Positions 55,945 through 61,395 of a stretch of 64,000 nt of DNA are shown here, one piece after another. Origin of the DNA: an uncultured Gemmatimonadales bacterium. Its GTDB lineage: Bacteria; Gemmatimonadota; Gemmatimonadetes; Gemmatimonadales; GWC2-71-9. Position 1 is the first letter of the stretch, and each line of letters starts with the position of its first letter. The DNA lies in contig CAVUAK010000003.1 of NCBI GenBank assembly GCA_963739455.1, positions 160,001 through 224,000 on the forward strand, written 5' to 3'. The position numbers and the translations under genes are program-made. Under the pieces are notes generated by a model. The model did no database searches. It had not been told where the DNA came from and saw only the letters and a program-made list of their open reading frames with translations.

Positions 55945-57401
55945 TGCTCGTTCTCGACCATGATCGCGCCGGCGGCTACTGGGGGGCGGTATACGTCTTC
56001 ACCGCGGTGAAGGGGCTGCAGGTAGTCATCGATGGCCCGGTAGGGTGCGAGAACCTGCCCGTCACGTCGGTGCTGCACTACACCGACGCGCTGCCGCCGC
56101 ACGAGCTGCCGATCGTGGTCACTGGGCTTGCCGAGGAAGAGCTGGGGCAGAAGGGCACCGAGGGCAGCATGAAGCGGGCGCACAAGACGCTCGATCCCGA
56201 GTTGCCGTCGGTGGTGGTAACGGGCAGCATCGCCGAGATGATCGGCGGGGGCGTGACGCCGGAGGGCACGAACATCCAGCGCTTCCTGCCGCGCACGATC
56301 GATGAAGACCAGTGGCAGACGGCAAACCGCGCAATGTCGTGGCTCTGGGCGGAATACGGCCTGAAGCGCGGCGTGCGTCCCGACCCGAAGCCGCGCGAGC
56401 CGGGTGCGAAGCCGCGGGTCAACATCATCGGCCCGTGCTACGGCACATTCAACATGCCGTCCGACCTGGCGGAGATCCGCCGGCTGGTGGAGGGCATTGG
56501 TGCCGAGATCAACATGGTCTTCCCGCTCGGGTCGCACCTCGCCAACGTGCCGCGCCTGGTCGATGCCGACGTCAACGTCGTGATGTATCGCGAGTTCGGC
56601 CGGCAGCTCTGCGAGGCGCTGGAGAAGCCGTACCTGCAGGCGCCCATCGGGCTCCACTCGACCACGACGTTCCTGCGGACCCTCGGCGAGCTGCTGGGCC
56701 TCGATGCGGAACCGTTCATCGAGCGGGAGAAGCACACCACCATCAAGCCGATCTGGGACCTGTGGCGCAGCGTCACCCAGGACTTCTTCGCAACGGCGAG
56801 CTTCGGCATCGTCGCGAGCGAGACCTACGTCCGCGGCATCCGGCACTTCCTCGAGGACGAAATGGGGCTGCCGTGCACGCTGGCGGTGCCGCGCATTCCC
56901 GGGGCCAAGACTGACAACGCCGCGGTTCGGCAGTCGCTGAAGGAGCGGACACCGCTGGTGCTCTTCGGGAGCTACAACGAGCGGATGTACCTCGCCGAGC
57001 TGGGCGGGCGCGGATCGTACATCCCGGCGTCGTTCCCCGGGGCCATCATCCGCCGGCACACTGGCACGCCGTTCATGGGCTACGCCGGCGCCACCTACCT
57101 GGTGCAGGAAGTCTGCAACGCGCTCTTCGACGCGCTGTTCAACATCCTCCCCCTGGCCACCGACATGGATCGCGTCGAACCGACGCCCGCGCGCCTCACC
57201 GCATCGCTGCCGTGGGATGTGCCGGCGCAGGAGCGGCTCGAGTCGCTGGTGGAGGCGGAGCCGATGCTGGTGCGCATCTCGGCGGCGAAGCGGCTGCGCG
57301 AACGGGCCGAGCGGGTGGCGCGGGGCCGCGGCGACGTGGAAGTGACCCTGGAGCACCTCGACGGCGACGGGTTGGCCGACCCGCGCCTCGCGCATCGCTA
57401 G
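55944..57401 (+). CDS. bchZ: Chlorophyllide reductase subunit Z
   Basis: [51 protein letters not shown]. Confidence 0.97.
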
Positions 57402-58285
57402 GGGGAGAGGCGCCCGGCGGATTCGGTGAGGAGCCGTGCGATGGCGGCGGGTTGTTCCTCATGCAGGAGGTGGCCGCCGGGCAGGGTGTCGAGGGTGCAA
57501 CCGGGTGTGCGTCGCGCAAGTGATCGAAGGTCGTCGAGCGCAATCCAGGGATCGCGGGTCCCGGCGACGAGGTGGAGCGGCACGATGAGTCGCGGCATGT
57601 CGGCCACGAGTCCGGTGAGTGACCAGTTGGCCATCATGCCGAGGACATTGCGGACCCGCTCGTCGGAGCCAAGCATCTGCTCGTAGAGGTGCCGGTTGCC
57701 GGGTGTCACCGAGGACTGGGTCGCGCGAAGCAGTGACGCGATGACGCCCTCGCGACGGGCCAGGGCCGCGGCGGGAGCCGCGACGAAGCGGGCAGTGACG
57801 AGGCGGTGCATGAACGGCGCGATGAGCTCGCGATAGAGCGCCGGCGGCGGGACCAGCGCGGGGTTGAGCCCCACGAGCCGCGATCCGGCAGGGTCACCGT
57901 CGAGCGCCATGCGAATGATGATCGCGGCGCCGGCGGAGTGACCCGCCGAGAGCACCGGGGTGAGGCCAAGGGCAGTGAGCAGCGCGCCGCATGCGCGCGC
58001 CATGCCGGGCAGGGTCAGGGTAGCGCGGTCGGGTGCCGAGGTGAATCCGTGGCCCGGCAGGTCGGGAGCCACCACCGTGAAGTGCCGCGCGAGCAGGGGG
58101 AAGAGGTCGCCCCAGGAGAAGCTCGCCGCACCGGTGCCATGCAGGAGCAGGATTGCGGGACCGGTGCCCGCCACCTGCACATGCCACCGCAGCCCGGCGG
58201 CATCGACGAAGCGGCTCGACGAGGAATTGGGCCAGTGCGGGGCGAGCGATTCCCAGCCTGGTGGAGTGGTTGAAGGGCTGTTCAT
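57398..58285 (-). CDS. bchO: BchO alpha/beta hydrolase (Mg-chelatase accessory)
   Basis: [60 protein letters not shown]. Confidence 0.88.
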
Positions 58286-58373
58286 GGGTTTACGCGGTCG
58301 TATGCCCGAGTGCGGGTGACCGCCCCAGCCGCGTGGGACGACGCGGCATGTATTACAACTCCCGGAGGAGTGT

Positions 58374-58505
58374 ATGGCAGACAACGGCTTGAGCGACGAA
58401 GAAGCACGGGGTTTTCACCGGTATTTCGTGTTGGGATTTGTCTCGTTCACTGGCGTAGCCATCGTCGCGCATTTCCTGGCGTGGCAGTGGCGTCCGTGGC
58501 TCTGA
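58374..58505 (+). CDS. pufB: Light-harvesting beta polypeptide (43 aa)
   Basis: Manual translation [53 protein letters not shown]; not in the ORF track. Confidence 0.96.
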
Positions 58506-58533
58506 TCACAACCCTTTTCCCAGAGGTTGACTG

Positions 58534-58695
58534 ATGTACAAGATCTGGCGCGGATCCGATCCAGTGACAGTACTGGCGGGATTGTTCTTCTCACTTGGCG
58601 TACTCTCGATCGTGCTGCACCTGTTCGCGTTCAGCGCGGTGGGCTACCCGAAGAGTGCCAAGATGAAGTACAACCCGCCGGCGGCGACCCAGTAA
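58534..58695 (+). CDS. pufA: Light-harvesting alpha polypeptide, divergent outer-ring (LHh-like) type (53 aa)
   Basis: Manual translation MYKIWRGSDPVTVLAGLFFSLGVLSIVLHLFAFSAVGYPKSAKMKYNPPAATQ; GAGG RBS; BChl-ligand His at position 29; not in the ORF track. Confidence 0.9.
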   Translation: MYKIWRGSDPVTVLAGLFFSLGVLSIVLHLFAFSAVGYPKSAKMKYNPPAATQ

Positions 58696-58790
58696 GGCGC
58701 CCTGACGCAGGTGCGTAAGCCAGGGTGCCGGCTATCACAGGTGCCCAGCTTGCGACCCTGCGCCGCTCTCTCCTCACCAAGGACCAGCGT

Positions 58791-59006
58791 ATGTATCGCA
58801 TCTGGCTTGCGTTCGACCCACGACGGGTGATGGTCGCACTGACGGTGTTCCTCACAGTGCTGGCCGTCACGATCCACTTCATCCTGCTGAGTTCCAGCCG
58901 GTATGCATGGATCGAGAATGGTACGCTATCGGCAGAGAAGGCGCCGGTAGGGTCCGGGCACGCCGCCGCAGTGGCCGAGATGGCCCCGCTGCCGGCCAAC
59001 CGGTAG
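58791..59006 (+). CDS. pufA: LH1 alpha polypeptide (71 aa, extended C-terminus)
   Basis: [40 protein letters not shown]...; AAGGA RBS. Confidence 0.96.
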
Positions 59007-59973: not shown

Positions 59974-61395
59974 ATGCTTGAATACCAGAACATCTTCACG
60001 CGGGTCCAGGTGCGCACCGCGCCCGACCCGGGGCTGCCGATCGACCTCTCGACCGGTGCCCGCTATGGCAAGGGGACGTTCAACTACTGGATCGGCAAGA
60101 TCGGCGATGCGCAGATCGGGCCCATCTATCTCGGATGGAGCGGGATCGCCTCGATCATCTTCGGCTTCTTCGCCATCGAGATCATCGGGCTCAACTTCCT
60201 GGCGCAGGTGCACTGGAGCCCGATCCAGTTCATCCGGCAGCTGCCGTGGCTGGCGCTCGAGCCGCCGCCGCCACAGTTCGGCACGCACCTCTTCCCGCCG
60301 CTGCAGCAGGGCGGGTGGTACCTGCTCGCCGGCGGGTTCCTCTCGGCCGCAATCCTGCTCTGGTGGGTGCGCACCTACCTGCGCGCGCGGGCCCTCGGAC
60401 TGGGGACGCACCTCGCGTGGGCCTTTGCGTCGGCGATCTTCCTCTACTCCACCTTCTTCTTCCAGCCGCTGCTCGTCGGCAGCTGGAGCGAGATGGTGCC
60501 GTTCGGGATCTTCGCCCACCTCGACTGGACCGCGGCATTCTCGATCCGGTACGGGAACCTCTACTACAACCCGTTCCACGCGCTCTCGATCGCGTTCCTC
60601 TACGGCTCGGCGGTGCTCTTCGCCATGCACGGGGCCACGATCCTCGCGGTGAGCCGGGTGGGTGGCGAGCGGGAGATCGAGCAGATCACCGATCGCGGCA
60701 CCGCGGCCGAGCGCGCGGCGCTCTTCTGGCGCTGGACGATGGGCTGGAACGCCACGATGGAGTCGATTCATCGCTGGGCCTGGTGGTTCGCCGTGCTGAC
60801 GACCTTCACCGGCGGGCTCGGTATCCTGCTCACCGGCACCGTGGTGGACAACTGGTATCTCTGGGGCCAGAAGCACGGCCTGGTGGCCGACTACCCGGCA
60901 CAGAATCCGGCCGCCGCCGCTGACATGGAGAAGCTGCGCGGGCAGTACGCGGGTGTGCAGCCGTCAGGCTTCCCGGGCGTCGGCATCGACGACACGATCC
61001 CGGTCGTCATCGTGGCGGAGCAGATCTACGAAAGCGTGACGAAGACGGGACGCGTGGTGACCCAGGCGATCCTCTTCGACGTGGCACAGGCCACTATCGT
61101 CGCCGATTCGAAGGCGCAGCTCGACGAGATCGGCAAGGTGCTCTCCGAGCATCCCGAGCTGACGTTCGTCATCGAGGGCCACACCGACAACACCGGCGAT
61201 CCAGCCGGTAACCAGTCGCTCTCGGAGCAGCGTGCCAGTGCGGTGCGCGACTACCTGATCACGAACTACCAGGTCCTGCCCGGCAGGCTGTCGACGGCGG
61301 GATACGGGGCGTCGCGACCGGTCGCGTCGAATGATTCGCCGGGTGGGCGCGCACACAACAGGCGCGTCGAGCTCGTCACCGGGAGCCAGCCATGA
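59974..61395 (+). CDS. pufM: Reaction centre M subunit fused to a C-terminal OmpA-like domain
   Basis: [54 protein letters not shown], then ILFD...IEGHTDNTG...[10 protein letters not shown]...GYG..RP...NRRVEL. Confidence 0.96.

Follow-up and report, generated by a model that had tools for sequence, protein, structure and literature searches.

An OmpA-like domain fused to the photosynthetic reaction-center M subunit of uncultured Gemmatimonadota, a candidate periplasmic tether to the sacculus

The puf locus

The window analyzed here is a stretch of 64,000 nucleotides from contig CAVUAK010000003.1 of an uncultured Gemmatimonadales bacterium (assembly GCA_963739455.1; forward-strand positions 160,001 to 224,000). 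It contains a puf operon in the order pufB, two antenna alpha genes, pufL, pufM-OmpA, and pufC (Table 1), upstream of which lie bchX/Y/Z-like genes, crtI/crtB-like genes, and hemB. An alpha/beta-hydrolase gene, encoded on the minus strand, separates the bchZ-like gene from this operon.

The pufM gene (59974-61395, forward strand) is a single open frame of 473 aa in which a full-length PufM core is followed by a linker and then by an entire OmpA-like domain. Both constituent protein families score above their cutoffs, and the locus is therefore correctly described, as it was in the initial annotation, as a one-frame PufM-OmpA fusion. Its ATG, at 59974, lies 12 nt 3' of the pufL stop; at the other end, the sequence ATGA at 61392-61395 joins the TGA stop of pufM to the start of pufC, the overlap that had been reported on first reading. 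Among 28 related loci checked, fused or not, pufC begins at the pufM stop or no more than about 135 nt past it in 27, and the 28th is cut by the end of its contig; in most of these 27, the two genes overlap as ATGA. Because G+C content is even over the core (0.67), linker (0.69), and OmpA domain (0.66), with third-position G+C even as well, base composition gives no sign of a chimeric joint.

Table 1. Features of the puf operon in the window, with neighboring and comparison loci. Coordinates are window positions except for the last six rows, which refer to the named proteobacterial loci.
Feature	Coordinates	Strand	Basis
alpha/beta-hydrolase gene	57398-58384	-	
pufB-like antenna beta gene, 43 aa	58374-58505	+	ORF listing; named from sequence reading
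first antenna alpha gene, 53 aa (MYKIW...)	58534-58695	+	ORF listing; named by eye
second antenna alpha gene	58791-59006	+	Pfam LHC PF00556, E 4.6e-13, residues 23-62 of 93-aa ORF
pufL, reaction-center L subunit, 277 aa	59128-59961	+	Pfam Photo_RC, E 1.4e-98
pufM core, residues 1-305	59974-60888	+	TIGR01115, 502 bits
conserved periplasmic linker, residues 306-336	60889-60981	+	aligns with C-terminal extension of solved Gemmatimonas RC-M chains
short variable spacer, residues 337-346 (about 10-11 residues)	60982-61011	+	variable in alignment
OmpA-like domain, residues 347-470 (folded in the model from about residue 345)	61012-61383 (model: about 61006-61383)	+	Pfam PF00691, AlphaFold model
D405 codon	61186-61188	+	
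R420 codon	61231-61233	+	
pufC, reaction-center cytochrome, 419 aa	61392-62651	+	Pfam CytoC_RC, E 1.8e-93
PufC-OmpA frame, L041	4246-5625		Pfam CytoC_RC + OmpA
PufC-OmpA frame, L072	4270-5652		Pfam CytoC_RC + OmpA
PufC-OmpA frame, L077	4015-5397		Pfam CytoC_RC + OmpA
PufC-OmpA frame, L095	4269-5693		Pfam CytoC_RC + OmpA
PufC-OmpA frame, L073	4256-5638		Pfam CytoC_RC + OmpA
PufC-OmpA frame, L052	4253-5629		Pfam CytoC_RC + OmpA

The ORF of the second antenna alpha gene was listed from 58725, with MYRIW at 58791 as its likely start. A pair of alpha genes is also what the available text of PMC12817894 describes for the double-ring complexes of Gemmatimonas, and the presence of one beta and two alpha genes in the window (58374-59006) therefore points to a possible double ring in this organism. 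The window PufC is probably a four-heme cytochrome; the PufC of relatives contains four CxxCH motifs. By eye, this PufC carries a lipoprotein-like N-terminal signal (...VVTGC); its Pfam cytochrome match ends at residue 314 and is followed by a tail of ~100 residues rich in Ala, Pro, Gly, and Thr. Similar low-complexity tails occur on unfused PufM relatives.

The reaction-center core and linker

The N-terminal part of the fusion is an ordinary M subunit. It scores 502.3 bits against the NCBIfam pufM model TIGR01115 (cutoff 364.25), matching model positions 1-303 of 305 and thus belonging to PufM by full-length score, and Pfam Photo_RC (PF00124) covers residues 51-303 (E 8.9e-97). The cofactor-ligand motifs quoted in the initial annotation are all present in the translation, with H182, H202, H219, E234, and H266 in place; from Rhodobacter numbering, we take these to be the His ligands of the bacteriochlorophylls and the His/Glu ligands of the non-heme iron. 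Across 62 sequences, no substitution occurs at H182, H202, E234, or H266, and conservation at H219 is 90% or higher. The structural model contains five long helices (residues 54-78, 115-140, 145-168, 200-228, and 262-300), corresponding to the five transmembrane helices of PufM, and the gene has the expected neighbors, pufL upstream and pufC downstream. The core is 79% identical over aligned columns (Foldseek) to the solved RC-M chains 7o0w_M and 9h19_M, and 83% identical to PufM of G476 and G543, two genomes of Gemmatimonas type in which the tail of PufM matches that of the solved chains.

Solved PufM chains are 302-332 aa in length, with the exception of two Gemmatimonas chains of 367 and 392 aa. 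These RC-M subunits, from Gemmatimonas phototrophica and G. groenlandica (PDB 7o0u-7o0x, 9h19), resemble the window PufM in having a homologous linker and in the adjacency of pufM and pufC; however, they end in a short Ala/Pro/Thr/Ser-rich tail, contain no OmpA domain, and are unmodeled past about residue 336. Linker residues 306-336 (YPAQN...LRGxYxGxxPxxFP) are common to fused and unfused Gemmatimonadota PufM, and, because the matching stretch of the solved Gemmatimonas chains is modeled to residue 335-336, the linker is likely to be ordered on the complex. In the full-length model of the window protein, pLDDT falls below 50 at residues 332-340.

The C-terminus of PufM is known from reaction-center structures to be periplasmic, and the position of the linker in the solved Gemmatimonas complexes is consistent with this placement. 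From the topology of PufM, we infer that the OmpA-like domain is periplasmic as well; on the periplasmic end of M, it would need no signal peptide of its own.

The OmpA-like domain

Pfam OmpA (PF00691) matches residues 367-463 (61072-61362) with 79.4 bits against a gathering cutoff of 27.2, and over the entire profile (positions 1-98 of 98), so that the domain is a full-length member of the family. The limits first assigned to it, 61020-61380, fall near the folded range of the AlphaFold model. Modeled alone, the domain reaches a pLDDT of 94.2 and a pTM of 0.89, with elements in the order helix-strand-helix-strand-helix-strand-helix-strand. Its sequence matches PDB entries 5u1h (E 3.8e-23) and 3td3 (E 1.6e-19), and its best structural matches (Foldseek, probability 1.00) are the peptidoglycan-binding domains of OprF, Acinetobacter baumannii OmpA, TagL, Pal, and MotB, with TM scores of 0.77/0.83 and an rmsd of 1.7 for 5u1h and TM scores of 0.75/0.84 for 3td5. 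The predicted model thus has the alpha/beta fold of solved peptidoglycan-binding domains.

The Asp and Arg whose 15-residue spacing had been described as kept are D405 and R420. Their counterparts in A. baumannii OmpA are presumably D271 and R286, which hold the diaminopimelate carboxylate. Both residues align with the matching residues of 3td3, and the block with the N-x2-L-S-x2-R-A-x2-V motif aligns column for column with the A. baumannii domain, for which there are structures with bound diaminopimelate and with a bound peptidoglycan pentapeptide (by their titles, 3td4 and 3td5). In all 30 intact fused sequences (see below), T404, D405, N413, L416, S417, R420, A421, R463, and R464 are invariant. 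The alignments, this invariance, and the Foldseek matches together indicate that the domain keeps the peptidoglycan-contact residues and the fold of proven binders.

These residues also bear on a different reading, according to which the domain would belong to the photosystem as a structural element. It would dock to the cytochrome, RC-S-like subunits, or antenna C-termini and thereby stabilize or assemble the complex without binding the wall. With a spacer of only ~11 residues, the domain must sit near the periplasmic face of the complex, and extra extrinsic polypeptides are described in the available text of PMC8849296 as clamping the reaction center in its ring in Gemmatimonas; both points would suit such a role. 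However, the residues invariant in 30 of 30 sequences are the family's peptidoglycan-contact residues, which would be unexpected in a re-used protein-protein module, and the solved complexes are stable without an OmpA domain. A purely structural role appears unlikely on this evidence. The same geometry also counts against binding to the wall: since only about 11 residues separate the OmpA domain from the part that is ordered in homologs, the reach of the domain to the wall would depend on where on the complex that point lies.

Were the M subunit a delivery device, the domain would be cleaved from it after export and act as a free periplasmic OmpA-like protein. Processing of reaction-center polypeptides has been noted in other lineages: according to PMC12650329 (available text), maturation of the fused PufL-PufM of Chloroflexota produces two separate proteins, and RC-S of G. 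phototrophica is N-terminally processed (PMC8849296, available text). Yet the alignment of fused sequences reveals no evident conserved cleavage motif in the variable spacer, the position of the domain relative to the linker never varies, and the unfused loci examined have no free-standing copy next to pufM. We regard release of the domain as decidedly unlikely.

Distribution and conservation of the fusion

Proteins combining Photo_RC and OmpA, for which the initial annotation had proposed a search of genomes and MAGs, were recovered repeatedly. When residues 300-473 served as the query, both Pfam families were present in 13 clusters, with lengths of 465-473 aa. Their sources are assemblies from JGI, NCBI, ENA, and Logan, and all those with a name are Gemmatimonadales MAGs. 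With the core (residues 1-310) as the query, the evaluation covered the best 120 clusters listed, all of which are at least 76% identical in the core and, where named, belong to Gemmatimonadota. PF00691 is present on 30 of these 120 closest PufM clusters listed, comprising the same 13, here called type I (465-473 aa, including the window's own), and 17 of type II (482-609 aa); one further PufM cluster, P0272, contains a decayed OmpA copy. In a representative search at 50% clustering, fused proteins fall under unfused representatives, and the joint is visible only in fragments P0152 and P0194.

A genome survey drew on two samples of 401 Gemmatimonadota genomes, one of the window's family and one of the phylum. 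A complete PufM frame was present in 23 surveyed genomes, and the domain in 7 of these 23: four from f1, the window's family (G000, G092, G243, and G397), and three from a second family, f2 (G568, G610, and G630). The fused G630 shares its genus code with G476 and G543, the two genomes with PufM tails like those of the solved Gemmatimonas chains. Relatives that always encoded the two parts as separate genes had been named as evidence that would speak against a fusion; in the flanks of the unfused loci examined, no separate OmpA gene was found beside pufM.

This distribution bears on whether the fusion could be an assembly chimera, an indel, or a wrong gene model, a concern raised in the initial annotation and shared by the authors of a 2025 article, who, in its available text, could not exclude wrong gene models for three PufM-OmpA cases (PMC12650329). 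However, the same frame recurs in independent assemblies and sources, composition is even at the joint, and the frame has been preserved through many synonymous changes; the probability of an artifact is practically nil. Raw reads contribute little in this respect. Among public runs, the best share of the stretch's words was 0.13, with none containing the full stretch, and reads of X1, X2, X4, and X15 at 85% likeness yielded only short contigs of relatives, none of which spans the joint, and which are thus no evidence either way.

In a comparison with G092, a sister genome, the core and the OmpA domain have dN/dS values of 0.041 and 0.047, respectively, and the linker has 0.152, at dS values of 0.43-0.75; dN/dS values of distant pairs rest on near-saturated dS. 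Low dN/dS over so many silent changes indicates that the fusion frame is kept by selection. With the domain on 30 of the 120 clusters listed, and with its dN/dS close to that of the core, the fusion can be considered conserved and subject to purifying selection. Another reading, that a chance fusion left a domain which has lost its function and is now decaying, would be in keeping with the repeated loss described below, with the degenerate copy in P0272, and with the clean absence of the domain from P0342. In the window's lineage, however, dN/dS of the domain is like that of the catalytic core, and the motifs are invariant over copies that, the three nearest relatives of the window's domain aside, are just 41-62% identical to it. 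There is accordingly very little reason to favor a relic.

Gain, loss, and origin of the domain

On a PufM core tree (124 rows, quick IQ-TREE), the fused forms are scattered, such that about 10 changes are needed, at least 4 of them forced by well-supported branches. In a tree of OmpA domains that included 140 free or other OmpA domains, the fused domains form two pure groups, one of 17 rows (type II; 99% support) and one of 14 rows (type I plus P0272; 82%). A constraint joining all 31 fused domains was not rejected (p-AU of 0.66), and the constrained tree was better by 19.6 log-likelihood units. In our interpretation, the fusion arose early within Gemmatimonadota, once or at most twice, and was then lost repeatedly; the 3' part of the gene may also have been transferred between lineages.

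Individual sequences illustrate the absence or decay of the domain. P0342 (472 aa) is without exactly the OmpA domain of its close relative P0367 (609 aa, fused), in frame and with the tail after the domain kept: residues 1-367 of P0367 correspond to 1-363 of P0342 at 85%, and residues 504-608 to 365-471 at 71%. In P0272, decay takes the form of an insert in the HTD-to-R block and loss of NRRVE. The two cultured, structurally solved Gemmatimonas RC-M chains are also both without the OmpA domain. Because relatives have lost it, the domain is accessory and dispensable.

Among free proteins, those most closely related to the window's domain are OmpA proteins at 55-59% identity. Of six named non-PufM matches to the domain, five are from Gemmatimonadaceae or Gemmatimonadales and one is from Steroidobacter, while the best paralog in the window's own genome is 41% identical. 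These data suggest that the host phylum was the probable source of the domain, and that its recruitment probably followed the arrival of the photosynthesis genes.

Two other genomes with the window's genus code, G271 (locus L003) and G018 (locus L005), encode a PufM with a core identity of only 71%, an insert near the N-terminus, and a tail of another kind that lacks OmpA. The existence of two PufM lineages in the window's genus hints at separate acquisitions or at exchange of the gene cluster. In a separate set of four contig-edge fragments (P0131, P0132, P0134, and P0226), a PufM end and a PufC start (Photo_RC and CytoC_RC) share one frame; these could be real M-C fusions or frameshift errors.

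PufC-OmpA fusions in Proteobacteria

Among 80 loci listed, mostly from Proteobacteria, eight from Proteobacteria show a match to OmpA-like domains where the pufC frame ends (3' end). Six of these eight were scanned, and all six, including Variovorax sp. H27-G14, gave CytoC_RC and OmpA matches over cutoff. Querying with the PufC-OmpA domain returned both families in 119 of the 120 proteins listed, with named hits in Variovorax (cultured strains included), Ideonella, and Burkholderiales. Judging from these proteins, PufC-OmpA fusions are common in Burkholderiales. PufC and PufM are alike as periplasmic reaction-center subunits with PF00691, but the subunit that carries the domain differs, and no OmpA domain was found on PufM among the proteobacterial loci listed. 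The OmpA domains of PufC form their own clade (99% support), and the GHTD motif reads G[YF]HS in them by eye, unaligned, so that the contact Asp does not seem to be retained. Derivation of the PufM domain from the PufC-OmpA of a proteobacterial donor was considered and rejected, since the PufC domains are a separate clade and the nearest free relatives of the PufM domain, where named, are mainly from Gemmatimonadota.

Comparison with known systems

Full-text literature searches found no paper on a Puf-OmpA fusion besides PMC12650329, which mentions three PufM-OmpA fusions, described in its available text as rare and as possible gene-model errors. These have the same domain order on PufM as the window gene, but the available text presents only three cases, without an analysis of taxon, conservation, or residues. 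The terms "OmpA" and "peptidoglycan" are absent from the main text of the Gemmatimonas structure papers PMC8849296 and PMC12817894. The initial annotation knew of no description of the fusion; that statement is weakened by the three cases in print in 2025 and by the same idea advanced for PsaB of Gloeobacter (PMC11565984). The architecture is not unprecedented, yet, on the sequences surveyed here, it is far commoner and better conserved than the single published mention suggests.

According to the available text of PMC11565984, PsaB of Gloeobacter violaceus has a 155-residue, outer-membrane-protein-like C-terminal extension, confirmed by mass spectrometry, which is proposed to anchor PSI to peptidoglycan and is not visible in the structure. 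The window's domain matches Gloeobacter PsaB (872 aa; PDB 7f4v_aB) at residues 753-864 with an E value of 1e-12. The extension was reportedly first described by Inoue et al. in FEBS Lett in 2004. Like the PufM described here, which is likewise a core photosystem subunit with a periplasmic C-terminal OmpA-like domain, Gloeobacter PsaB ends periplasmically in such a domain and belongs to photosystems of the cytoplasmic membrane. However, PsaB is a different subunit, of a type I rather than a type II reaction center and in another phylum; reports of its extension are confined to Gloeobacter, whereas many lineages of Gemmatimonadota have the fusion on PufM. Because reaction-center type, subunit, and phylum are unrelated, the two fusions arose independently, and the difference in core subunit points to shared design rather than shared descent.

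MotB/PomB stators, TssL/TagL of type VI secretion, and YiaD similarly unite a cytoplasmic-membrane protein with a periplasmic C-terminal OmpA-like domain of the same fold and contact residues. Their membrane part is, however, unrelated, with one helix as compared with the five reaction-center helices of PufM, and no plug or channel logic is evident here. The MotB, MotD, and MotS models score 55-65 bits against cutoffs of 264-301, over the OmpA part only, which places the protein outside the MotB/PomB stators; no NCBIfam model of the MotB/PomB, TssL/TagL, or YiaD families reaches its cutoff on the window PufM. The comparison with a MotB stator made in the initial annotation is therefore apt as an analogy for an anchor, but nothing stator-like accompanies it.

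Proposed function

The reading that we favor, and consider reasonably probable in view of the conserved sequence and the predicted fold, is that the OmpA domain on PufM is a periplasmic tether of the reaction-center-antenna complex to the sacculus. The M subunit would itself be normal, with its periplasmic C-terminus continuing into the OmpA-like domain in the same polypeptide. The domain would cross the membrane together with the last transmembrane helix and fold in the periplasm, next to the cytochrome subunit, where D405 and R420 would bind the diaminopimelate stem peptides of peptidoglycan non-covalently. Each reaction-center/antenna complex of the cytoplasmic membrane would thereby be held to the sacculus; from the antenna gene content, the tethered unit may be a very large double-ring complex. 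The effect could be less lateral mobility, or a fixed position of this very large complex, with the photosystem staying in the cytoplasmic membrane; a further possible effect would be to set the distance between membrane and wall over the tall cytochrome. Bracing of the envelope and prevention of membrane invagination are further possibilities suggested in the initial annotation. Counting against a tether are the dispensability of the domain, with ~10 gains or losses on the core tree, its absence from P0342 and from both solved Gemmatimonas chains, its decay in P0272, and the shortness of the spacer; moreover, the Gloeobacter precedent is itself a hypothesis.

A broader proposal can be made only speculatively, and we hold it with considerable doubt: wall tethering could be recurrent and convergent in phototrophs with photosystems of the cytoplasmic membrane, with PufM as the carrier in Gemmatimonadota, PufC in Burkholderiales, and PsaB in Gloeobacter. 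In that case, photosynthetic membrane domains would be organized or immobilized by the sacculus in a manner incompatible with intracytoplasmic membranes, and the cryo-EM models of Gemmatimonas, derived from strains that had lost the anchor, would miss part of the native architecture of the group.

Significance

The sequences assembled here indicate that Puf-OmpA fusions, once dismissed as possible gene-model errors, are real and common. PufM-OmpA provides a second case, of type II, for the old wall-anchor hypothesis formulated on Gloeobacter PsaB. Should the domain indeed bind the wall, the reaction-center/antenna complexes of many uncultured phototrophic Gemmatimonadota, a large share of them, would be fixed to the sacculus. 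If true, this would bear on how photosynthetic complexes are placed in bacteria without internal membranes, on how a horizontally acquired photosystem is fitted into a new envelope, and on how representative the two solved Gemmatimonas complexes are.
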